From positions 1 through 9,955 of IMG/VR virus record IMGVR_UViG_2703718815_000001: DNA of 9,955 nt. One strand, 5' to 3'. Source of the DNA: a virus (lineage: Duplodnaviria > Heunggongvirae > Uroviricota > Caudoviricetes). Within the stretch, counting starts at the first letter, position 1, and each line of letters starts with the position of its first letter. A program made the translations under genes and the position numbers. The notes below the pieces were generated by a model. The model was given only the letters and a program-made list of their open reading frames with translations, was not told where the DNA came from and did no database searches. Shown in pieces: positions 1 through 9,955 of the stretch.

Positions 1-27
1 CTTTCGGGTCGCCGGTTTTCAAGACCG
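1..27 (-). other. 3'-portion fragment of a tRNA-Ser(UGA)-like gene (anticodon stem-loop plus start of long variable arm), cut by the window edge; probable att core duplicate
   Basis: Reverse complement of 1-27 is CGGTCTTGAAAACCGGCGACCCGAAAG: a CGGT/ACCG stem around the 7-nt loop CUUGAAA (U33, anticodon UGA, A37), then GCGACCCGAAAG as in class II seryl-tRNA variable arms. This matches my recollection of E. coli serT. Positions 28-60 are A-rich and cannot form the D-arm or acceptor 5' half, so only the 3' part is present. Confidence 0.5.
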
Positions 28-168
28 AAGAAAAATAAAGAAAAATCAGTATAATACGCAAAATAGCCGAAAAGTTAATCAGACTTAACACCAAGAAAAA
101 TCAAGATGTTAGGGAGTTATTCAGAGTTAATATACCAGGTCTTTTTGCCAGAAAATTTTCTGGATTGT
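28..168. repeat. AT-rich att arm region with direct repeats AAGAAAAAT(A/C)A (28-38, 38-48, 93-103) and a 16-bp palindrome CCAGAAAATTTTCTGG (148-163) abutting the int stop codon
   Basis: Repeats and palindrome read directly from the sequence. The position, between the tRNA-like core and the 3' end of int, is where arm-type Int/IHF/Xis binding sites lie in lambdoid attP/attL. Function is inferred. Confidence 0.35.
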
Positions 169-1188
169 CTACTTACTGACCACAAGCGGCAAATCCAGTG
201 TTGGCGTGATTTTGGTTTTACGATCGTAAATCAACACCTGATTTTCTGTTTTGTGTCCACTGAAAATTTGTTTGTCGCGACTGCTGCCTTCATAATCTGA
301 AATTCCTTTGGCTTTTATGTCATGGAAGTTGCACCCAAACGGAACACCGGCTTTTTGCTCGGCTGCACGTTTAGCCTGATTCCACCAGTTGTTCAGCGTT
401 TTAGCTATGACCTTCCCGCCTTTGGTTGTGTTGATCACATACTCGCATGTGCCGGAAGATACATTTCGGGCTAACTGGATCGCCGTACGTAATCGTGGAG
501 ACCATTCCTTGATTTGTTTGGTGCCGGTCTTGTTTTGCTCAATGTAAATCCCTTTGTCCATAATATCCTCCCATTTCAGCTCGAGCACATCACCGAGCCT
601 TGCCGCACAGAGATAGGATATCTCCATTGCAATACGTAACTGTGGAATTGCTTCCGCATATATCGCAGCATACTGTTCATCGGTGATGTAAACAGTACGG
701 GCTTTAAGCGTGAATTTTCTGACTCCTTTGCATGGATTATTTTTCACATACCCACGCTCATATCCCCATCCGTATACGCGACTCAGACTTGCCAGTTCAT
801 GGTTTGCCTGGGTCTTGCTCTCAAGACCCCGCTTATCCATGAAAATTCTTACCTGCTCAATTTTTACATTATCAGCAAGCATTTTCCCGAATACCGCCAG
901 TAATGCCCTTTGATGTTGCCGATAATCTTTTTGGGTTCGGGGGGCCAGTTCTGTAAATGCAGGGGAGTCCATAAACATGTGCCATAATTTAGCTACGGTC
1001 ATTATGTCGTGGAGTTTTGCCTTTTCCAGTTCATAATTTTGCCAGACTTTAGCCACGCTGGTTTCCCGCACTCTTCCGAGCTTTATCGTTCTTGTGCTTC
1101 CTTTGGGTTTCCATACGTAACTGTAACCATTCGATCTAACGCGCGGTGGCAGTACATTATCTTTTTTGTCTTTTCTTGGTCTTCCCAT
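169..1188 (-). CDS. int: Tyrosine-type phage integrase (lambda Int family)
   Basis: 339-aa ORF. The central segment TDEQYAAIYAEA...LRIAMEISYLCAARLGDVLELKWEDI...YIEQNKTGTK parallels lambda Int (LTADEYLKIYQAA...LRLAMELAVVTGQRVGDLCEMKWSDI...YVEQSKTGVK). The C-terminal region has His and Tyr in the expected catalytic arrangement (FHDIKAKGISDY...SGHKTENQVLIYDRK). It lies next to xis and the att core. Confidence 0.9.
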   Translation of the reverse strand: MGRPRKDKKDNVLPPRVRSNGYSYVWKPKGSTRTIKLGRVRETSVAKVWQNYELEKAKLHDIMTVAKLWHMFMDSPAFTELAPRTQKDYRQHQRALLAVFGKMLADNVKIEQVRIFMDKRGLESKTQANHELASLSRVYGWGYERGYVKNNPCKGVRKFTLKARTVYITDEQYAAIYAEAIPQLRIAMEISYLCAARLGDVLELKWEDIMDKGIYIEQNKTGTKQIKEWSPRLRTAIQLARNVSSGTCEYVINTTKGGKVIAKTLNNWWNQAKRAAEQKAGVPFGCNFHDIKAKGISDYEGSSRDKQIFSGHKTENQVLIYDRKTKITPTLDLPLVVSK

Positions 1189-1408
1189 TATTCAGTGCCT
1201 CAAAATCGGGTTCAGCAGAAACCAGTTCAGATACTTTTGACATTGCTGTTAGTCCACGTGGAATATCACAGCGTAGAACTATCGGCTCGTTTTTAGGCCC
1301 GATTAAAAATGGGATGCCGTGCAGTCTTAACTGGTGTTGCTGTCTTGTGTATCGCTTGTATTTCGTGATCTCTTGAATCTCTGCTGGCGATAGAGTTAAT
1401 TCATACAT
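1157..1408 (-). CDS. xis: Excisionase-like small DNA-binding protein (Xis/YdaQ-like)
   Basis: 83-aa basic ORF directly upstream of int, overlapping its start by 32 nt (classic xis-int arrangement). AAGG lies about 12 nt upstream of the ATG at 1408. Family assignment (DUF1233-type excisionase) is recollection, not a search result. Confidence 0.65.
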   Translation of the reverse strand: MYELTLSPAEIQEITKYKRYTRQQHQLRLHGIPFLIGPKNEPIVLRCDIPRGLTAMSKVSELVSAEPDFEALNNGKTKKRQKR

Positions 1409-1433
1409 GTGGTCACGTGCCTTACAGCATGAC

Positions 1434-1460
1434 CGCCGCCAATATAATTCGGAGGCGGCG
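1434..1460 (-). promoter_or_regulatory. Hairpin (7-bp GC stem CGCCGCC/GGCGGCG, 13-nt loop) between the exonuclease stop and the xis start
   Basis: Inverted repeat 1434-1440 / 1454-1460 read from the sequence. No U-tract follows on the minus strand, so it is not a canonical intrinsic terminator; it may be an RNA-processing or retroregulation element. Confidence 0.25.
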
Positions 1461-1474
1461 ATCAGGGTTGAACA

Positions 1475-3955
1475 TTAAAAATCAGCCTGACTCGGGATCA
1501 GTTTTTGTATCGTAGCTGTAACGTATTTTGCCTGGTGACGGGCGTCATCCAGTGCATTGTGGCGCACGCCTTCGAATGGAATAACGGTTCTGGCATCAAA
1601 GTCGATTGTTTTTCCCAGCTCAACGATTGTGCGTACATCGCGATCGTTGTGGTAGCTCCACGGGCAGGGGATGTCCAGACGTTCGTATGAGGTGCGCAAA
1701 ATTGCGTTATCGAAAGTTGCACCATTACCCCATACCTGAACGAATTTTTCATCTGAGTATTCGTTGATGAACTCCCGAAACTGCGAAAGGGCATCCTTCA
1801 GTTTTACCTGGTCTGTTAAAATGGCAGCTCTGGCTTCACTGGACTGCTTCAGCCACCATTCGATGGTTCCACCGTCAGGAACAGCCCCTGTATTCATTGC
1901 GTCAGTCAGACTGATAACGATATAAAATACTGGCCCGATTTCCCCTGTTTGTGGGTCGAAGAAAACCGCACCAATAACCACGATGGGCGCATTGGTGTTG
2001 GTTCCCATTGTTTCAAGGTCGATCATCAGGTGGTACCACACTCTGCTGGTGGATGTGATAACGTGATGACCGTTCACCGCAATTAAGGGATCTGCCGTCT
2101 CGCCAGTTTCATTATCGCTGGCGTGGTCCTGAGCGCTGCCAGCATTCTCCTTGTGTGGATGTTCAGCGCCTTCCATTTCCTCCGGATCATTTTCCTGAAC
2201 TTCAACCTGATTCTCTTCATCGAATGTTTCCTGATATGTTGCGTCGCCCATCACCGCACCACAATCAGGGCAGTTGCCGCCACCGATCTGACCGCAGGCG
2301 GTGCAGACTTTTTCCGCTTCCTGTTGCGCTACCGGTTCGGATTGTTTCGTTTCTGGCTCGTTTTGTAACGCATTTTGGCTGTTTTGTTCCGCTTTCTGGT
2401 TGTTCTGTTCCGTTTCTTGCTGGTTCTGGTTCACAGAATCGCGGGTTTCAATCCCCTTCACCCATTTCGGATCATTCGGGTCGCTAATCCCTGCAACAAA
2501 TTCTCCGCGAGAGGCAGCAAGCAGTTCATTAGCGTCAGGCTGGCTGATATTGGCTGCCTGCATAATTTTGTTTACTTCGTCAGCGGTAACTTTTACCGGC
2601 TCTGGTTGTGCGGTCGTGTCAGATGCACCAGTATTTTGTTGTGAGCCTGAGTATGTACCGTTTTTGCGGGCAAAATATTCTTCTTTCGTGATTTCAGTAG
2701 CCCCTGCAGCCAGCGCCTTATTCAGACCAGAAAGTTTGTTTGCACGACCATATTTTTCGCCATCCTTATCGGTGAAAAGGAAGTAGAACGGCCCCTCACG
2801 CTCTACAGATGGTTCAGTTTCCAGCGTGTTTTCATTTTTTTGGGTATCAGATACTTCAGTTTCCACTGCATCAGTTTGTACTGCTGACGGCTGGAGAATA
2901 TCAGCAGTGTTCTGGTCTGTTTCTTCATCCTCAAACACGCCCTTTGTCGCCAGGTATTCAGTGATGTATTTGTTCAGTGCTACGGGATCTTTGTGAATGT
3001 CGATCGGACGCTCACGGACAAGGCCAAAAATAGTCTGACGGTCGTAGCGAACGGCATCGGGTTGTTTGCGCATAGATGCGGAAATGCGCTTCCAGTCTTC
3101 GCGATCTTTGTCGATAACTTCATTTTTTGCCCAGCGATGGATGCTGCCGTCAATGTTTCCGGCATTAATATCGCCAGGCCACAGAGCGTAGGCCAGTTCT
3201 TCATCCAGCGTTTTCCATGTCTGCTTGTATTCGCGATGAATGGCGGCAGTGGTGGGGTTGATTTTTCCTGCTGAGTTTTCAGTGTGCTGCCGGTTGACTC
3301 TGGCGCGGGCAAGATCAACAACAGACGTGTATTTCCCGGTTTCTTTGCGTTCGGTTTCGCGACGTTTTTTCCAGGTGCGTAATTCTGTCTGGATCTCAGG
3401 CCATTTTGCACCCGGCTTACATTTATGTTTAACCCACCCGATGGCGAGCAGCTTTAGTTCTGAATACATGACGTTAACTTCAGGCATTTTCATCAATGCC
3501 TCAACGATATGCCCGTCGAATGTTGCCATGTCCTCCTGCAACAATTCCTGTGCACTAATCACCATATCAACGGTGATGTTTTCACATGTACCGAACTTAA
3601 CCAGGACCGCGTTCTGTACTTCAAGGGACAGCTTGTCAAAATTGACGTTCATCGGATCGGATTCTGGTTCGACCGGGACAAAGGAAGCGCCTTCCTCATC
3701 CCAGCGGTTTTCCAGCATATATTCGGTATCCCAGGAGTCGATGGCAGGGCGGGGCATGCCGGGTTTATCCTCGCAGACAAGAAATTTATAAGCGCAGTCC
3801 TGAGCAGCCGGATATTGCTCCAGGAATTGCCAGGTAAATTTGGCACGGGCGCGACGTTCGTCGCCGGCTTCAATGGCAGTGGCTACAGCGACTGCACCTT
3901 CTTTCTTTATTGCCTGTTCGTCCGGAATGGCGGCGCAAATAAAGACTTTACTCAT
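1475..3955 (-). CDS. Large multidomain phage exonuclease (often annotated exodeoxyribonuclease VIII-like): N-terminal domain of unknown function, Q/N/E-rich linker, CxxC...CxxC zinc ribbon, C-terminal DEDDh (DnaQ-like) 3'-5' exonuclease domain
   Basis: 826-aa ORF with GAGG 9 nt upstream of the ATG at 3955. The C-terminal ~183 aa carry DEDDh motifs: MIDLET (Exo I), [12 protein letters not shown] (Exo II), [13 protein letters not shown] (Exo III). [16 protein letters not shown] is a 4-Cys ribbon (DNA about 2255-2305). A low-complexity [18 protein letters not shown] linker is encoded by tandem DNA repeats at about 2330-2420. The segment [29 protein letters not shown] resembles my memory of the RecE middle region; the N-terminus resembles what Qin ydfE encodes (recollection). 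Confidence 0.8.
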
Positions 3956-4035
3956 TTTGTTTTAACCTCATTACAGATTTAAGGGTGAACAAATCCCTGC
4001 CATTGCTGGCATATAAAAATGAAACCGGATATTAA

Positions 4036-4239
4036 TTACGGCGCTGTTTTAAGTCCTGCCGGGATTTCGTTATTATCCATGTGAATAACTTTATCGACCG
4101 GATAGCAGTTACCGGGAATTTTTTGTTCTGCTGCGGCAGCCATGCATTCTTTCATTGAACCGTAAATGTCAATAACCATGTCAACAGGCTCGCCAGTATT
4201 AAGGAAAACAGTCAGAGTGAGGGCAATAGCAGTATTCAT
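4036..4239 (-). CDS. Small membrane protein, YdfD-like (Qin prophage lysis-associated protein family), 67 aa
   Basis: Start chosen at the internal ATG 4239 (AAGGA 8 nt upstream), which overlaps the dicB-like stop as ATGA (translational coupling). N-terminal hydrophobic helix MNTAIALTLTVFL. Size and position match ydfD downstream of dicB in Qin. The track ORF 4036..4293 begins upstream, inside dicB. Confidence 0.6.
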   Translation of the reverse strand: MNTAIALTLTVFLNTGEPVDMVIDIYGSMKECMAAAAEQKIPGNCYPVDKVIHMDNNEIPAGLKTAP

Positions 4240-4424
4240 TGCCAGTATCCTTTTTGCATCGGGCGTAAACGTGCCAGCATTGAAAGAATGCATATTTTAT
4301 TTAATAGCTCCCGTTCGTGTTTTCTCTTATTAATGGCATCTTCAGTAAATGCAGGGTTACTGATTTTGACACCAATTTCAAAACAACCTTCAGACGTATT
4401 AACGTTTGGTAATAACGTTTCCAT
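4236..4424 (-). CDS. dicB: Cell-division inhibitor DicB homolog, 62 aa
   Basis: From the internal ATG at 4424 (GAGGA 7 nt upstream) the product is METLLPNVNTSEGCFEIGVKISNPAFTEDAINKRKHERELLNKICILSMLARLRPMQKGYWQ. This matches the length and, closely, the sequence of Qin DicB as I recall it. It follows a DicF-like element, as in Qin. Confidence 0.75.
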   Translation of the reverse strand: METLLPNVNTSEGCFEIGVKISNPAFTEDAINKRKHERELLNKICILSMLARLRPMQKGYWQ

Positions 4425-4607
4425 TATCGCGTCCTCAACAATGAATTTTGTGATACGGTGCCTGGTGCCTCCAGGTGACGTTAACCAGTTAACAATTAAC
4501 GCCGGATACAGAGAACCCACCCATAAGAACCAATACGGAAGTCAACTGGCCTTTTTAACTGTTCCGCGTGCGCTGAGCCGCATTCACCGCATCACAAAAT
4601 TCACTTT

Positions 4608-4670
4608 AAAAAGGGCGGGTATCACAAGGGAAAACAAAAAACGGATACCCGCCAAAAGGTAATCAACATG
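4608..4670 (-). ncRNA. dicF: DicF-family small RNA (divergent variant) with intrinsic terminator
   Basis: Minus strand reads ...UGUUGAUUACCUUUUGGCGGGUAUCCGUUUUUUGUUUUCCCUUGUGAUACCCGCCCUUUUUAAAGUGAAUUUUGUGAUG. It has a 10-bp stem (4614-4623 / 4644-4653) followed by a CUUUUU tract. It shares UUUGGCGG...UAUC.GUUUU...CCGCCCUUUUU with K-12 DicF (recollected 53-nt sequence), but the 5' dozen nucleotides differ. It sits between the ydfC-like and dicB-like genes as in Qin. The 5' end is estimated by alignment, not mapped. Confidence 0.55.
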
Positions 4671-4790
4671 GGTTGTTGCAGCGGGGTTGTCACTTAAGCG
4701 TATGGTCAACCTGACAACCCGGTGTCCTCAACGGGGAAGGAATAACCCCGCCATACTTACCGCCGCGCCATTTCGCGGAGTGCCACAACC

Positions 4791-4857
4791 GGAAGCGCAC
4801 AGACGAAGATGTCAGTGGTACACAACAAAGGGAGGAATGACTTCGCTGTGCGCTTCC
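4791..4857 (-). promoter_or_regulatory. Long near-perfect RNA hairpin (12 bp + 1-nt bulge + 5 bp stem, about 32-nt loop) in the untranslated leader upstream of the DicF-like RNA; candidate RNase III processing stem
   Basis: GGAAGCGCACAG-A-CGAAG (4791-4808) pairs with CTTCG-CTGTGCGCTTCC (4841-4857). It lies about 120 nt upstream of the inferred DicF-like 5' end. In K-12 the DicF precursor is cut by RNase III upstream of the mature RNA (established knowledge); the assignment here is inference. Confidence 0.3.
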
Positions 4858-4985
4858 GTGTTATGCCCTGACTTTTCAGGGATATATCCTTTCAGTAAAC
4901 TGCCAGTGCCGGATGCTCACCCGTGTCCGGCGCACGCACTCCACCTCACCCGTGGAGAACTCCTTAATTAACAACCCTCAGGAGG

Positions 4986-5216
4986 GTGATTTTGAACACA
5001 ATAAAAACCACTATTAATAATGATTTATCCCATGATGGAATAAATGCCGAATTAAGAGCCATTAAGCTCGCGATAGCTTTGATGGCAACAAGACTTCCGC
5101 CAGAACTTCGCTCAGATTGTGTAACAGATGCTTTAAAAAGCACAGGTGATAAACATGCCACTGAATTAGCAAACCTGATTCAACAATTCATAGATGAGGC
5201 GAATTCTCAAAACTGA
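4986..5216 (+). CDS. Hypothetical small protein (74-76 aa), AT-rich, opposite orientation to the surrounding operon; no family recognised
   Basis: Perfect AGGAGG at 4980-4985. Start is GTG 4986 (0-nt spacing) or, more plausibly, TTG 4992 (6-nt spacing); there is no in-frame ATG near the start. First codon positions are purine-rich and third positions A/T-rich, consistent with coding in an AT-rich acquired gene. Predicted helical and soluble. No obvious sigma70 promoter seen upstream. Confidence 0.4.
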   Translation: MILNTIKTTINNDLSHDGINAELRAIKLAIALMATRLPPELRSDCVTDALKSTGDKHATELANLIQQFIDEANSQN

Positions 5217-5367
5217 TTGTTATTTCTTTCTGAAAACTTTTACTATCCAGGCATTTTTTTGCTAACCAAATGCGGGCCTCTGTGCCTGCATTGGGCTCCA
5301 GTTCATGTAAGCGTTTTGCATCTTCCAGAAGCAAGGCAATAACGTGTTTAAGTTCTGTTTCATTCAT
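5188..5367 (-). CDS. Hypothetical small protein (59 aa; 63 aa if started at 5379); no family recognised
   Basis: ATG at 5367 with GAGG 6 nt upstream, 15 nt after the ydfC-like stop and co-oriented with the operon. The 3' end overlaps the plus-strand ORF by 29 bp (5188-5216). Product: MNETELKHVIALLLEDAKRLHELEPNAGTEARIWLAKKCLDSKSFQKEITISFENSPHL. Confidence 0.45.
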   Translation of the reverse strand: MNETELKHVIALLLEDAKRLHELEPNAGTEARIWLAKKCLDSKSFQKEITISFENSPHL

Positions 5368-5382
5368 CGTCAACCTCATCGG

Positions 5383-5598
5383 TCAGTAGTTTGCAATCAC
5401 TCGCGAAACGTTTAATGCCGCTCTTTTTGCCAGAGTGGTAATATCTTGCTCCGCTGATGCCAGTTCTTTAGAGAGGCGCTCTTTGTAGTCAGCAGCCTGC
5501 TTCATGTCATTAATGGCGCGTATCTTCCCGCACATCCATTCGTAAATTTCATCATCGGTATAGTCTGGCGCGATGATGACGGGTTCTCGTTTCTGCAT
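5383..5598 (-). CDS. YdfC-like small protein (71 aa) of the dicB-type operon
   Basis: GAGGAA 7 nt upstream of the ATG at 5598. Size (Qin YdfC is 72 aa) and position (third gene of the operon) match; sequence similarity is from memory only. Confidence 0.6.
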   Translation of the reverse strand: MQKREPVIIAPDYTDDEIYEWMCGKIRAINDMKQAADYKERLSKELASAEQDITTLAKRAALNVSRVIANY

Positions 5599-5628
5599 AC
5601 TGAATTCCTCGCGGTGCCGCTTCGCTTA

Positions 5629-5757
5629 TCAGCCGTTAGATTTTGCCGAACTGGAAAGCGCCTGTTTAAACTCACTGAAGCTGAGAGCTTCTTCGCCTTC
5701 GGCAAGGCCTTCGAAGTATTCTTCGTAAGCCTTTTCCATGATTGTGTCGAAATCCAT
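5629..5757 (-). CDS. YdfB/YdaG-like small acidic protein (42 aa); not in the supplied ORF track (below its length cutoff)
   Basis: Manual translation of the reverse complement: MDFDTIMEKAYEEYFEGLAEGEEALSFSEFKQALSSSAKSNG, with AGGTGAG just upstream of the ATG at 5757. It starts 1 nt after the ydfA-like stop. Size matches Qin YdfB (42 aa). Confidence 0.6.
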   Translation of the reverse strand: MDFDTIMEKAYEEYFEGLAEGEEALSFSEFKQALSSSAKSNG

Positions 5758-5758
5758 A

Positions 5759-5914
5759 TCACTCACCTGAGTTTCTTTCCAGCCAGCGACGAGCGCCAGT
5801 TTCGGTTTTAAACGTTTTGCTTTTGGTATACGTCATCGCGGTGAATGTGCCGTCCTGGTTGGGGAACACGCCACATACCAGAGATTCGCTGTTGCCAAGA
5901 TCGATAGTATCCAT
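5759..5914 (-). CDS. YdfA/YdaF-like small protein (51 aa), first gene of the leftward early operon
   Basis: Internal ATG at 5914 with GAGG 6 nt upstream gives MDTIDLGNSESLVCGVFPNQDGTFTAMTYTKSKTFKTETGARRWLERNSGE (51 aa, the size of Qin YdfA and Rac YdaF). An alternative upstream ATG at 5992 (77 aa) also has a GAGG and cannot be excluded. Confidence 0.6.
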   Translation of the reverse strand: MDTIDLGNSESLVCGVFPNQDGTFTAMTYTKSKTFKTETGARRWLERNSGE

Positions 5915-6092
5915 GTTGACCTCATTTCCCCTTAACGCCGGGGTAGCGGAACAAAAACCTGCTGCATAGTTAAAGTTGAACCCTGCCGTCATGTTCTTAC
6001 GCCTCGGGCTGGCTACTTAACCCCTGACCACTGCCTGGTAACTCGAAGTATTGCCCTGCATTCTGTGGGGCGGGGTGGGTTGGTATGAGAAA

Positions 6093-6134
6093 ACTATAGG
6101 TAATGCCTAATTGCTTGTCAATAGGCTATGCCTA
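6093..6134 (-). promoter_or_regulatory. Leftward early promoter (pL-like) with overlapping operators (OL)
   Basis: On the minus strand: -35 TTGACA (plus 6116-6121), 17-nt spacer, -10 TATAGT (plus 6093-6098). Operator palindromes TAGGT-AAT-GCCTA (6097-6109) and TAGGC-TAT-GCCTA (6122-6134) overlap the promoter. Confidence 0.5.
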
Positions 6135-6231
6135 ATGTTTTTTGCGCACAACCTAATAGGCGATGGTATGTGGAAGAGGTAATGGGAGCTAAATAACGGG
6201 ATCTAGGAGCTTCCCGTCGGACCATATAAGT

Positions 6232-6708
6232 TTAAGTTCCCGTTTTGGTGATGTTCTGGCTTTTCCGTTCTGATTCTTGATTTTTCAGATAGTTACTTAC
6301 CTTCATTTCCATTGCAGTAATGTAGGCGCGAACGTCATGATCAACCCAACCAGACTCCGCAGCATTTCCAGATAAGAGGAAAGCTACAATTGCTCTTTTT
6401 TCATCAGAAGCGGCTTGATAAAGGCTGTTTATGTCTAAAAGTTCTCTTTTTGAATCTGAGCAGGAAGGGGTTGGTATGGGGTATTCGTTAAGCCCCCAAT
6501 GCTCTGGACCAACCACATCAGAAAAGAAACGCCATAGTTCTGGAAGTTTATCTTTACTTATCGAACCTTTCTTAATCCAGTCATGGATTGATGGTGGTTG
6601 GACTTTGAAATGGCGTGCGATCTCCGCCTTTGATTTGACGGCTCCTGATGCAATTTTTTTATTAATGGCCTGCTCTATCGCTCGGCCTAAGTCTTTACCA
6701 CTAAGCAT
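6232..6708 (-). CDS. racR: Prophage repressor, cI-type HTH protein (RacR-like), 158 aa
   Basis: N-terminal HTH region (KSKAEIARHFKVQPPSIHDWIKKGS). It sits between two operator/promoter regions and is divergent from the Cro-like ydaS. Length is identical to Rac RacR (158 aa). Symbol is given on synteny and size; the sequence is not recalled residue by residue. Confidence 0.75.
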   Translation of the reverse strand: MLSGKDLGRAIEQAINKKIASGAVKSKAEIARHFKVQPPSIHDWIKKGSISKDKLPELWRFFSDVVGPEHWGLNEYPIPTPSCSDSKRELLDINSLYQAASDEKRAIVAFLLSGNAAESGWVDHDVRAYITAMEMKVSNYLKNQESERKSQNITKTGT

Positions 6709-6736
6709 TGCTTAATAGTCTCCTATGTGCATTGCA

Positions 6737-6805
6737 TTAGGCAATCCCTACCTATTGGTTGTTAGGCATAGCCTATTGACAATGATGTTAGGCGTCGCCT
6801 AATAT
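6737..6805 (+). promoter_or_regulatory. Rightward early promoter (pR-like) with three operators (OR)
   Basis: -35 TTGACA at 6776-6781, 18-nt spacer, -10 TAATAT at 6800-6805. Operators TAGGC-AAT-CCCTA (6737-6749), TAGGC-ATA-GCCTA (6763-6775) and TAGGC-GTC-GCCTA (6789-6801) have centres 26 bp apart. Confidence 0.55.
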
Positions 6806-6832
6806 CATTGTGTGTTTTTTGGAGTTCATTCG

Positions 6833-7156
6833 ATGAAAAAAGAGAACTATTCATTCAAACGAGCTTGTGCTGTTGTCGGTGGGCAATCAGCAATGGCCAG
6901 ACTTTTAGGGGTATCGCCTCCAAGCGTAAATCAATGGATCAAAGGTGTACGTCGGTTGCCTGCCGAGAGATGTCCAGCGATTGAACGAGCAACAAAAGGT
7001 GGAGTCCTGTGTGAAGAACTTCGTCCTGATGTTGACTGGTCATACTTACGACGTTCGTCATGTTATTCGCAGAATATGTCGATGAAGCAACCAAATGACA
7101 AAAACGATCATACCCGAAGTATCAAGAGGCAAATGATTCATGAAAATCAAGCATGA
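6833..7156 (+). CDS. ydaS: Cro-like HTH protein YdaS
   Basis: ATG at 6833 with GGAG 8 nt upstream. The track's GTG start at 6812 would sit inside the -10 region. MKKENYSFKRACAVVGGQSAMARLLGVSPPSVNQWIKGVRRLPAERCPAIERA closely matches Rac YdaS as I recall it. Confidence 0.75.
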   Translation: MKKENYSFKRACAVVGGQSAMARLLGVSPPSVNQWIKGVRRLPAERCPAIERATKGGVLCEELRPDVDWSYLRRSSCYSQNMSMKQPNDKNDHTRSIKRQMIHENQA

Positions 7157-7565
7157 ACACATCCGCATGGCGATGAATGCCTGGGCGCATCCGGACGGTG
7201 AAAAAGTTCCGGCAGCTGAAATAACCCGGGCTTATTTTGAGCTGGGTATGACGTTCCCGGAGCTATATGACGACAGCCATCCGGAAGCCCTGGCTCGCAA
7301 TACTCAGAAAATATTCCGCTGGGTGGAGAAAGACACCCCTGATGCTGTTGAAAAAATTCAGGCGTTGTTACCAGCGATCGAAAAAGCAATGCCACCTCTG
7401 CTGGTGGCCCGAATGCGCAGCCACAGTTCAGCCTATTTTCGGGAGCTGGTGGAGACGCGGGAACGACTGGTGAGAGACGCTGATGATTTTGTCGCAGTGG
7501 CGATCGCTGGTTTCAACCAGATGAATCGTGGTGGTCCGGCGGGAAATGCCGTGGTGATGCACTAA
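7140..7565 (+). CDS. ydaT: YdaT-family protein (141 aa), reported as toxic on overexpression and as a CII-like regulator
   Basis: Overlaps the ydaS 3' end; AAGAGG 10 nt upstream of the ATG. Size (Rac YdaT is 140 aa) and position (after ydaS, before the replication genes) match. Confidence 0.7.
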   Translation: MKIKHEHIRMAMNAWAHPDGEKVPAAEITRAYFELGMTFPELYDDSHPEALARNTQKIFRWVEKDTPDAVEKIQALLPAIEKAMPPLLVARMRSHSSAYFRELVETRERLVRDADDFVAVAIAGFNQMNRGGPAGNAVVMH

Positions 7566-7588
7566 AAGCACGGTGTTCGGAGTTTTTT

Positions 7589-8536
7589 ATGAGCAGCAAG
7601 CTTCATGGTCTTGTCTGGGAAGGGTGTGCCTTCACCGGCATGATCTTATCCAGGGTGGCAGTAATGGCTCGCCTTGCAGATTACAGCAATGACGAAGGTG
7701 TGTCATGGCCTGCAGTGGAGACCATTCGTCGTCAGATTGGGGCAAAGAGTGAATCAACGGTTAAAGCTGCGATAGCAGAACTGGAAAAGAACGGCTGGCT
7801 GACGAAGGAAGAACGTAAGGTCGGTGGGCGTAATGAAAGCAATATCTACCGTCTTAATGTGGAAAAACTCGAAGCAGCAGCAGCGGCGGCGCGTGAGGCA
7901 TATAAACCGAAAAGAAAAATTAACCCGGTAAAAAATGACCCGTCAAATATTGACCCCTCAACGGTTGACCCCTCAAATTTTGATGGATCAACCGTTGATA
8001 AAAAACATCCGGTTAGGGGGGCGATGGTTGGCCCCGATCCGTCAGTATTAAAACCTGATCCGTCAGATAAAAGATCTTTTCGTCCGGACGCTTCGCAACC
8101 GGACCCGCAGACGGCTGAACAGGATTTTTTAACCCGACACCCTGACGCGGTTGTGTTCAGTGCGAAAAAACGCCAGTGGGGCAGCCAGGAAGATTTGGCG
8201 TGTGCGCAGTGGATCTGGGGACGAATCGTGAGTCTTTACGAGCAGGCTGCCAGCGATGATGGCGAAATCATGCGACCGAAAGAACCAAACTGGACTGCAT
8301 GGGCCAATGATGTGCGCACAATGCGGATGCTGGATGGCAGAACTCACAGACAAATTTGCGAAATGTTTGGTCGGGCACAGCGGGATCCATTCTGGGTAAA
8401 AAACGTCATGAGCCCGTCAAAGCTTCGCGAAAAATGGGATGAGCTGGTTATTCGTCTGGGGCGTTCGCCTGTACAGCGTTGCGTGAATCATATTTCCGAG
8501 CCGGACGCCGAAATTCCGCCGGGATTCAGGGGGTAA
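7589..8536 (+). CDS. Replication initiation protein (lambda O-like / YdaU-like) with N-terminal HTH DNA-binding domain
   Basis: 315-aa ORF with GGAG 5 nt upstream. N-terminal winged-helix-like region. The central linker (NPVKNDPSNIDPSTVDPSNFDGSTVD) is encoded by iteron-like DNA repeats, as the lambda ori lies inside O. Immediately followed by the DnaC-like loader. Confidence 0.75.
   Translation: MSSKLHGLVWEGCAFTGMILSRVAVMARLADYSNDEGVSWPAVETIRRQIGAKSESTVKAAIAELEKNGWLTKEERKVGGRNESNIYRLNVEKLEAAAAAAREAYKPKRKINPVKNDPSNIDPSTVDPSNFDGSTVDKKHPVRGAMVGPDPSVLKPDPSDKRSFRPDASQPDPQTAEQDFLTRHPDAVVFSAKKRQWGSQEDLACAQWIWGRIVSLYEQAASDDGEIMRPKEPNWTAWANDVRTMRMLDGRTHRQICEMFGRAQRDPFWVKNVMSPSKLREKWDELVIRLGRSPVQRCVNHISEPDAEIPPGFRG
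7936..7991. repeat. Putative replication-origin iterons: four 11-bp units TGACCCGTCAA / TGACCCCTCAA / TGACCCCTCAA / TGATGGATCAA at an exact 15-bp period, followed by an A-rich tract
   Basis: Units start at 7936, 7951, 7966 and 7981, each with an internal TGA...TCA inverted symmetry. They are located inside the O-like gene linker. Origin function is inferred by analogy to ori-lambda. Confidence 0.5.
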
Positions 8537-8542
8537 CGAAGC

Positions 8543-9289
8543 ATGAAAAATATTGCGACAGGCGGTGTTCTTGAACGCATCCGTAAGCTGGCTCCGCAGC
8601 ATGTAACCGCGCCATACCGAACAGTGGACGAGTGGCGCGAGTGGCAACTTGCAGAAGGCCAGAAGCGTTGCGAGGAGATCAACCGCCAGAATCGTCAGTT
8701 GCGGGTGGAAAAAATTCTGAATCGCTCCGGCATCCAGCCGTTGCACCGCAAGTGCTCGTTTGCGAATTACCAGGTGCAGAATGACGGCCAGCGATACGCG
8801 TTGAGCCAGGCGAAATCCATCGCCGATGAACTGATGACCGGATGCACAAATTTCGCATTCAGCGGAAAACCTGGTACCGGAAAAAACCATCTGGCGGCGG
8901 CTATCGGGAATCGCCTGCTGAAAGATGGCCAGACAGTGATTGTGGTTACCGTGGCTGATGTCATGAGTGCTCTACACGCCAGCTATGACGACGGGCAATC
9001 AGGCGAAAAATTTTTGCGGGAACTGTGCGAAGTGGATCTGCTGGTTCTTGATGAAATTGGTATTCAGCGCGAGACGAAAAACGAGCAGGTGGTACTGCAC
9101 CAGATTGTTGATCGCCGGACAGCGTCGATGCGCAGCGTGGGGATGCTGACAAACCTGAACTATGAGGCCATGAAAACATTGCTCGGCGAGCGGATTATGG
9201 ATCGCATGACCATGAACGGCGGGCGCTGGGTGAATTTTAACTGGGAGAGCTGGCGCCCGAATGTTGGTCAGCCAGGTATTGAGAAGTAA
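8543..9289 (+). CDS. DnaC-like helicase loader / IstB-type AAA+ ATPase (YdaV-like replication protein)
   Basis: 248-aa ORF with Walker [16 protein letters not shown] and Walker [10 protein letters not shown]. It follows the O-like initiator; length matches Rac YdaV (248 aa). Confidence 0.9.
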
Positions 9290-9311
9290 TTTTTACCGGG
9301 AGGAAATTTTA

Positions 9312-9955
9312 ATGGAGACCGTTTTTGACGCACTGAAAGCGATGGGAAAAGCCACGTCGGTAGAACTGGCTGCGCGACTTGATATCAGTCGTGAAGAGGT
9401 ACTGAACGAGCTGTGGGAACTGAAAAAGGCTGGTTTCGTTGATAAAAGCGTATACACCTGGCGTGTAGCTGGTGAAGGTGAATCCGGGGTAGCCGAAGAG
9501 CAGCCAGCACAATCTGAAGTACAGGATGTGCTAACCAGGGAGGTCGAACGAAAAGTTACCGCTGACATGATGATTGAGTTTATCGGTCAGGAGGGAGCTA
9601 AAACGTGTGAGGAACTGGCGGGTAAGTTTGGTGTCAGCACTCGCAAGGTTGCTTCCACGCTGGCGGTAGTAACCGCAACGGGGCGGCTGGCACGCGTAAA
9701 CCAGAACGGTAAATTTCGCTACTGCATGCCGGGCGGTAATTTACCAGCAGAGCCGAAAGCTGCATTGGTAGCGGAAACTGATGGTAAAGCCTTTCCTCAG
9801 CCAGCAAGTGTTGCGTTACCAGTACAGGAAGCTGCAACACAGGAAGATATTAAAACAGAAACTGTGGCGGACATTGTGCAGCCGCTTGAGAAGCGAGTGG
9901 ATAATCTGGTTCTGCCATCGCTGCGACAGGCAAACCGCGAACTGCGTCGGGCGAA
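9312..9955 (+). CDS. Hypothetical phage protein, 3'-truncated by the window end; two tandem winged-helix-like repeats at the N-terminus
   Basis: ATG at 9312 with GGGAGG 8 nt upstream; open frame to the window end (not in the track because it is incomplete). Internal duplication: [33 protein letters not shown] versus [39 protein letters not shown]. Confidence 0.6.

Follow-up and report, generated by a model that had tools for sequence, protein, structure and literature searches.

A convergent pair of small genes at a probable gene-exchange slot in the early-left operon of a Rac/Qin-type lambdoid prophage

Lambdoid prophages are a main source of strain-specific genes in Escherichia coli, and the range of phages to which a strain is open is often set by genes that its silent prophages express. 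In the prophage sequence of virus record IMGVR_UViG_2703718815_000001 (positions 1 to 9,955, here called the window), two small open reading frames (ORFs) meet tail to tail inside the leftward early operon: a rightward ORF of 74 amino acids (aa) and a leftward ORF of 59 aa. What might a gene be doing that points against the operon in which it lies? The reading that we favour, with a probability of roughly 0.55, is that the rightward gene is an accessory gene expressed in the lysogen and switched off by early-left transcription, sitting in an exchange slot head-on to a gene of the YmfJ family; the case for it is built from sequence comparisons. The pair was singled out in an earlier note, made from the letters of the window, as a candidate for something undescribed. 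Both ORFs of that note are present (4986/4992-5216 rightward and 5188-5367/5379 leftward), but the layout is not new: it is already annotated in ymfI/ymfJ and sieB/ydaF, and the pair is a further case of this recurrent arrangement. The finding is a well-placed gene of uncharacterised function, not a new kind of system.

The insertion and its alternatives

The gene order of the window is that of the dicBF-type early-left operon as described for Qin, in which ydfA-ydfB-ydfC, a long untranslated region with dicF, dicB and ydfD form one polycistronic, repressor-controlled transcript that is toxic if expressed (PMC5069750). The rightward ORF is the sole plus-strand coding sequence between int and racR, as the earlier note had stated, and the leftward ORF, co-oriented with racR-ydfA-ydfB-ydfC, directly follows the ydfC-like gene after a gap of 15 nucleotides (nt). 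When K-12 Qin was aligned by BLASTN, it matched positions 3900-4976 and 5389-5952, and 29 bp of Qin stood for positions 4977-5388. The AT-rich segment between the ydfC-like gene and the dicF/dicB leader (Table 1) is an insertion relative to K-12 Qin by this alignment, as had been suspected. It had been described as an AT-rich islet between GC-rich flanks; the islet is real, with a G+C content of 0.356 in its cassette-specific part (4990-5256), but the flanks are average (0.513 for the dicB leader and 0.483 for ydfC-ydfA, against 0.481 for the whole window). Because the kilR leader of Rac matches positions 4440-4624 and the Rac ydaF matches the ydfA-like gene of the window, the segment occupies the slot that holds sieB in Rac, which agrees with the earlier proposal.

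At least six alternative fillings of this slot were found among other E. coli prophages with the same flanks, including a rightward 92-aa with a leftward 133-aa gene (locus L003), a 77-aa with a 135-aa gene (L011), a 69-aa gene with a pseudogene (L010) and a leftward 129-aa gene alone (L009). Flank homology with the prophages that carry other cargo ends at 4936-4989 on the left and picks up at 5365 on the right. The break points thus fall essentially on the start codons of the two ORFs, which leaves either ribosome-binding site in conserved flank. The slot is thus a hypervariable one, most probably for the exchange of accessory genes, in the early-left operon of Rac/Qin/e14-like lambdoid prophages, and the sieB/ymfI position appears to be a general exchange point, where a small variable gene nearly always runs head-on against a conserved gene of the YmfJ family. 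Known functions were looked for among the alternative fillings and none was found, besides a faint likeness of the YmfI family to GhoS that stays below threshold (see below); all fillings found, sieB excepted, are functionally uncharacterised, and with the 74-aa protein a rare family newly joins them.

Small domains seem to be shuffled at the same position. In the leftward genes of L003 (3032-3433), L009, L011 and L109, the place of the YmfJ domain can be taken by another small N-terminal domain (MEFKDLPxPFQEMAANIV...), and in the 133-aa protein of L003 domains of the two types stand in tandem. In a viral contig with an identical cassette (L019, 3194-3604), loss of the ydfC stop codon joins the ydfC-like ORF to the YmfJ-type one, giving a single ORF of 136 aa.

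Table 1. Features of the window in and around the convergent pair (positions in the window)
Feature	Positions	Strand	Remarks
int	169-1188	-	followed by xis
Exonuclease gene, 826 aa	1475-3955	-	
DUF1482 gene	4036-4239	-	
dicB	4236-4424	-	Pfam DicB, E 2e-36
dicB untranslated leader, conserved	4425-4976	-	alignment to Qin, Rac and L003
Diverged hairpin at the DicF position	4609-4653	-	GC-rich, then a T-run: GGCGGGTATC...GATACCCGCC TTTTT; free energy (dG) about -20 kcal/mol
Perfect palindrome CTCCAC-CTCACCC-GTGGAG	4939-4957		35 nt 5' of the rightward start, where homologues have the promoter-like element
Perfect palindrome ACCCTCAGGAGGGT, 14 nt	4974-4987		in conserved flank; contains AGGAGG; flagged as hairpin
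AT-rich segment, 412 bp, G+C 0.396	4977-5388		between ydfC-like gene and dicF/dicB leader
AGGAGG Shine-Dalgarno sequence	4980-4985	+	six nt 5' of TTG; in conserved flank, not cassette
Rightward ORF, 74 aa, TTG start	4992-5216	+	hypothetical protein WP_032083067 (Prokaryotic Genome Annotation Pipeline, PGAP; ETEC1746 record)
Overlap of the two 3' ends, 29 bp	5188-5216		covers last 9 leftward codons
Leftward ORF, 59 aa, ATG at 5367	5188-5367	-	hypothetical protein WP_062873958 (PGAP; ETEC1746 record)
Cassette-specific C-terminal tail AKKCLDSKSFQKEITISFENSPHL	5188-5256	-	last ~20 codons; ymfJ homology boundary at 5257
YmfJ N-terminal core, LKHVIALLLEDAKRLxxxEPNAGTEARIW	5257-5367	-	first ~37 codons; 40-aa helical-hairpin core predicted
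ydfC-like early gene	5383-5598	-	PHROG 1744; 86.5% DNA identity to Qin ydfC region
racR	6232-6708	-	reached after ydfB and the DUF1391/ydfA gene

A rare rightward gene and a widespread leftward one

Two starts had been offered for the rightward ORF, GTG 4986 and TTG 4992, behind a perfect AGGAGG. The Shine-Dalgarno sequence stands, but of the starts only TTG 4992 is supported, because homologues have ATG at the aligned position and PGAP made the same choice. Non-synonymous differences (pN) lie well below synonymous ones (pS), and the ORF is therefore protein-coding and not a chance antisense frame: in distant pairs of the family synonymous sites are saturated (pS 0.76-0.86) at a pN of about 0.37, and the closest variant, that of strain A8, shows five synonymous and two non-synonymous differences. 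An exhaustive HMMER search of 1.84 billion representatives returned nine matches, five or six of them genuine small homologues (35-47% identity), and a profile search of 5.8 billion proteins gave 15 clusters, from E. coli, Salmonella, Yersinia and Arsenophonus; overall, relatives share 35-63% identity with it. A copy is present in one cultured phage, Salmonella phage 118970_sal3, and no relatives were found in a one-genome-per-species collection or in JGI metagenomes. Matches to PHROG 7249 and 36251 are both to groups of uncharacterised function, and there was none in Pfam, NCBIfam or PADLOC, the last including its models of known anti-phage defence. By these searches the ORF is a member of a rare family without assigned function, new to the set of slot genes.

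The 74-aa protein (pI 5.1) is predicted, with moderate confidence, to be a soluble acidic three-helix bundle: the AlphaFold2 (AF2) model has a predicted local distance difference test score (pLDDT) of 67.5 and helices at residues 13-31, 40-48 and 53-71. There is no transmembrane segment, and hydropathy over 19 residues peaks at 1.0 (2.19 in Rac SieB). PDB sequence profiles gave no match, and in Foldseek against PDB and BFVD nothing fell below E 0.7 for the AF2 model of either ORF; one Foldseek match, to HK446 Rip1, was rejected as meaningless (E 7.3, root-mean-square deviation 14.9). Two candidate identities were also rejected. The protein is not a divergent YmfI, as it does not match NF051477, reaches a probability of 0.4% in hhalign against the YmfI alignment and is predicted to be all-helical, whereas YmfI has an alpha/beta MAKFxVRVEL core; nor is it a divergent SieB, given the hydropathy values above, the lack of a Pfam match and the lack of sequence similarity to SieB.

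At all 15 distinct loci examined, the rightward-family gene is the sole gene antisense to its neighbours and overlaps the 3' end of a leftward gene, by 26-119 bp. Most copies lie just downstream of the prophage repressor, and that of Arsenophonus lies between rusA and lysis genes, in the nin/late region. Such antisense placement at varying sites reads as the behaviour of a mobile accessory gene. A gene antisense to prophage lytic genes is a recognised signature of accessory (moron) loci (PMC7067206), and the window gene has this orientation, together with a deviant base composition (0.356 against 0.48-0.51), presence or absence among close relatives (the site is empty in Qin) and homologues at different positions in different phages. 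The earlier suggestion of a moron is supported on these points. The rightward ORF is intact in all full-length copies and its product has no characterised match, and the leftward ORF belongs to the uncharacterised YmfJ family.

With this last assignment, the description of both peptides as being of unknown family holds for the rightward one only. Translation of the leftward ORF is taken to start at ATG 5367, where homologues begin with MNETELK. Its YmfJ core has ~80% DNA identity to e14 ymfJ (79.6%), Cronobacter phage phiES15 gp10 and Aeromonas phage pAEv1818 gp20, and the core peptide is near-identical in all three. Searching with the leftward protein gave 174 clusters across Enterobacterales (57-88% identity, 44-104 aa); many members are only 47-50 aa long, that is, the ~45-aa core alone, and an alignment of 20 sequences has 16 invariant columns. 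With pS of 0.5-0.84 and pN of 0.08-0.15 (pN/pS about 0.15-0.2), the core is, by this measure, under strong purifying selection, and its residues 1-40 are predicted by AF2, with high confidence, to form a helical hairpin (pLDDT 85-93). The cassette-specific tail, in contrast, is predicted to be disordered (pLDDT 49-64) and is weakly constrained (pN/pS about 0.6 against L025), close variants differing only non-synonymously. The idea that this ORF is itself inserted cargo was rejected, since nothing but the tail is specific to the cassette and the core belongs to the conserved framework. It has no meaningful match in Pfam, NCBIfam, PDB or Foldseek (PDB, BFVD), and a chance-level one in PADLOC (E 0.02). 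Protein has been detected from K-12 ymfJ late after SOS induction (PMC11002266). By these comparisons the leftward ORF is an ordinary early gene of the widespread and uncharacterised YmfJ family.

The head-on arrangement and what it may do

How special is the convergence? In a sample of 80 IMG/VR loci with a YmfJ-type gene, of which 78 could be scored, a convergent partner (an ORF of at least 60 aa ending -110 to +10 nt from the YmfJ-type stop) was present in 74; in a crude control, the other ORFs of the same loci had one in 26% of cases. Typical overlaps are 4, 24, 29, 30, 41 or 63 bp, and the layout spans E. coli, Klebsiella, Cronobacter, Salmonella and one Aeromonas phage. The partners belong to several unrelated families, most commonly YmfI (e14 ymfI, pAEv1818 gp19 and an unannotated phiES15 ORF), whereas the rightward family of the window is the partner in three IMG/VR loci, all essentially one prophage. 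By this count, a head-on partner is the normal arrangement for the YmfJ family. In the window, the 29-bp overlap is as the earlier note described it, and within it a transcript of either ORF is antisense to the other. The substitution 5195 T>C turns H into R in the leftward tail and leaves the plus-strand protein unaltered; the plus frame therefore dominates the overlap.

The YmfI family (L004 2524-2865; partners in L031-L090) weakly resembles Pfam GhoS, the endoribonuclease antitoxin of GhoT/GhoS, at a score under the threshold (best E 0.0012; 18.7 bits, where the cutoff is 21).

Similar 3'-overlapping convergent layouts are shown by type I toxin-antitoxin systems of Gram-positive prophages, and the pair had been likened to a toxin-antitoxin module. 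Such a module, whether type I with convergent RNAs overlapping at their 3' ends or an atypical type II, is now highly improbable. Neither product is hydrophobic: the maximum 19-residue hydropathy of the leftward protein is 0.13, below even that of its partner, and both are hydrophilic (grand averages of hydropathy -0.30 and -0.43). Both ORFs are protein-coding and constrained as such, so neither is a dedicated antisense RNA; the genes are convergent rather than co-directional as in type II systems, and no toxin-antitoxin or defence model in Pfam, NCBIfam or PADLOC matches either ORF. Moreover, natural deletion derivatives retain the leftward gene with its tail and lose the rightward gene: L008 lacks the equivalent of 4808-5102, L025 is left with the last eight plus codons, and L027 is cut deeper. 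An addiction module is made less likely by these derivatives and by the unrelated partners with which YmfJ-type genes are paired.

Closer precedents are found in e14 and Rac. Like the window, e14 has a leftward gene with a YmfJ N-terminal domain, in the early-left operon downstream of the repressor, and a convergent opposite-strand partner over its 3' end, with an overlap of 63 bp. The differences are that the window's partner is not YmfI, that YmfJ of e14 has 102 aa and a different tail, that the window pair lies four genes from the repressor and inside a dicBF-type operon, and that a promoter-like element precedes ymfI and is missing in the window; ymfI and ymfJ are themselves functionally uncharacterised. 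In Rac, sieB lies in the corresponding slot between small early genes and the kil/dicB leader and converges from the opposite strand on the early gene ydaF, with a 4-bp overlap. SieB, however, is a 162-aa protein with a hydrophobic segment, without sequence similarity to the soluble 74-aa protein, and ydaF is a DUF1391/ydfA homologue, not a YmfJ-type gene. In RNA-sequencing work on K-12, the pairs ymfI-ymfJ and sieB-ydaF are each listed among the convergent excludons (PMC12288877). The coding regions of the window pair are likewise convergent and overlapping, so the transcripts must overlap if both are made.

By analogy with these two pairs, we propose an excludon logic for the window. The leftward ORF would share with ydfA-ydfB-ydfC a transcript from the early-left promoter, under control of the repressor, and the rightward ORF would be an independently evolving accessory gene set head-on to this operon, its 3' end overlapping that of the leftward ORF. 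In the lysogen a RacR-type repressor would silence the early-left operon and the rightward gene could be expressed. On induction, strong leftward transcription toward the dicF-position RNA and dicB would run antisense through the rightward gene, and collision and RNA pairing would then shut it off; leftward transcripts reach the dicB leader after crossing the cassette. We infer from the arrangement that the rightward gene would be transcribed in the lysogen and that the two transcripts would exclude one another. P22 offers a parallel in sieB/esc/sas, where an early-left accessory gene expressed in the lysogen is under antisense RNA from the infecting or induced phage (PMC12197685, PMC7067206); the likeness is one of logic only, the window having no homology, no evident internal start and no Esc-like product. 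As for the protein itself, no match links it to a known function, and a role in exclusion or defence, or more generally in competition with other phages as sieB would suggest, is a guess. Should the head-on layout indeed work as a switch between lysogeny and induction, accessory genes of prophages could be recognised by a simple rule that needs no more than the sequence.

Could the arrangement matter and the protein be secondary? Head-on transcription and antisense RNA might damp leaky read-through into a toxic dicF-type RNA and dicB in the lysogen. The rightward unit is directly upstream of the dicB leader, as Rac sieB is upstream of kilR, expression of the dicBF operon is toxic (PMC5069750), and the architecture of the slot stays constant while its partner proteins are unrelated. 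We nevertheless consider such a brake improbable: the plus protein has been under purifying selection over long divergence, and so matters itself; Qin and many relatives do without any insert; and the family member in the nin/late region lies far from any kil or dicB.

Most rightward-family homologues have a conserved promoter-like element 36-70 nt upstream of their ATG, in eight independent contexts. It consists of a -35 TTxACC, a 16-17 nt spacer with CCACNTCAGGC-N2-3-GGTGG and an extended -10 TGgTATCTT; in the form (A/G/T)CCACNTCAGGC-N2-3-GGTGG followed by TATCTT, it occurs in 47 of the 116 fetched loci. The element precedes opposite-strand genes of many unrelated families, including e14 ymfI (L004 2464-2482), and is also present at L005, L011, L013, L016, L017, L027, L048, L068, L086, L108 and L110-L116. 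This sharing supports, at the level of sequence, an independent transcription of opposite-strand genes in general. The element reads as a sigma-70 promoter with an extended -10; it has interleaved inverted repeats, and an operator or recombination site is also possible.

Several results weigh against the proposed switch. The promoter-like element is absent from the window, which has at that place only a related palindrome (4939-4957) and the Qin-type leader. A consensus promoter scan gave nothing convincing upstream of 4992, though it also missed the sieB positive control and is therefore uninformative, and a terminator scan found none between the two ORFs; for the window copy, then, no promoter or terminator of its own, as in morons of the Hendrix type, could be identified. 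The 80 viral loci of the convergence count are phylogenetically non-independent samples. Finally, the filling of the window was found in 4 of 5426 complete E. coli genomes, and with this rarity and the deletions in relatives the cassette may contribute little.

The same observations can be read to mean that the plus gene is a decaying passenger without a current role, left by recombination between lambdoid phages: it is rare, it is lost in three deletion derivatives, it has a TTG start, and the promoter-like element native to its family is missing. That the ORF is nevertheless intact in full-length copies, differs from the A8 variant mainly at synonymous sites, and has a perfect Shine-Dalgarno sequence at optimal spacing makes this a poor explanation.

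The tail of the leftward protein allows a further reading, in which the cassette brings two cognate parts, the 74-aa protein and a C-terminal tail grafted onto an upstream early protein, and after induction the tail-bearing protein neutralises or activates the 74-aa protein, with a logic similar to the self-immunity of P22 SieB/Esc. Every leftward partner of a rightward-family gene ends in h-x-h-x-F-[DE]-x-[AS]-P, and this motif recurs on differing N-terminal domains (YmfJ, a ClpX-type zinc finger, ydfC-like and others). Its position -4 is always I, L, M or V, is encoded by seven codon types and in most loci falls beyond the plus ORF. Conservation is highest at codon position 2 and lowest at position 3, which fits selection in the leftward frame. 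Counted on the same side is the beginning of the plus protein, whose first 12 residues are strand-like and unmodelled by AF2. By our own reading of the alignment, however, the plus stop codon dictates motif positions -2 and -1, and [EK]-A-[HN] of the plus protein dictates [AS]-P. The disorder and weak constraint of the tail, which is poorly kept in L109, also speak against a binding partner. The sample is small, with about 7-9 lineages that are independent, and in the motif alignment two rows were gapped by hand. Tail-mediated protein pairing is a minority hypothesis, and in our view an unlikely one.

More doubtful is its extension to a portable two-part module, comprising a 74-aa effector expressed in the lysogen and an "antidote" tail that is fused to any upstream early-left protein and encoded partly antisense to the 3' end of the effector gene; by this route the accessory protein of a prophage would be neutralised by the prophage itself upon induction. 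More broadly, a YmfJ-type gene and a head-on variable gene with the shared promoter-like element would form a conserved exchange platform in enterobacterial lambdoid phages. If it were true that the conserved tail is an antidote, phages would have a hitherto undescribed means of self-protection against an exclusion factor that they encode.

Neighbouring features of the prophage

The window is a lambdoid prophage of the Rac/Qin type whose integration site adjoins yccA, and it is 99.99% identical to E. coli ETEC1746 (NZ_CP122727); strains CEA224S and 52F4 carry this prophage as well. The exonuclease ORF is intact in the window and frameshifted according to the annotation of NZ_CP122727; a single indel separates the two sequences. 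On the other side of the operon, racR is followed by rightward cro-like, ydaT, O-like and P-like genes.

The untranslated stretch between dicB and the convergent ORFs is 567 bp long. Both perfect palindromes of Table 1 stand in the conserved flank ahead of the rightward ORF, and ACCCTCAGGAGGGT could sequester the Shine-Dalgarno sequence in RNA. Rfam DicF has no match in the window, whereas K-12 Qin scores 76.7 bits; a diverged hairpin stands at the DicF position (Table 1) and may be a DicF-position small RNA (sRNA) whose seed differs. A third variant, unlike those of Qin and the window, is present in Rac. Just upstream of dicB, positions 4392-4615 (minus strand) have a sub-threshold match to the Rfam sRNA STnc100 (34 bits against a gathering threshold of 47; E 1.6e-4), and the same leader precedes kilR in Rac. 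A 28-bp core of the dicB leader (4564-4591) is found again in e14 and phiES15.

Between the ydfA-like gene and the repressor, two relatives carry a RelE/ParE toxin-antitoxin pair (L002 3991-4469, strain A8; L011 3337-3816, strain 06-00048). This interval is another variable slot of the same operon.

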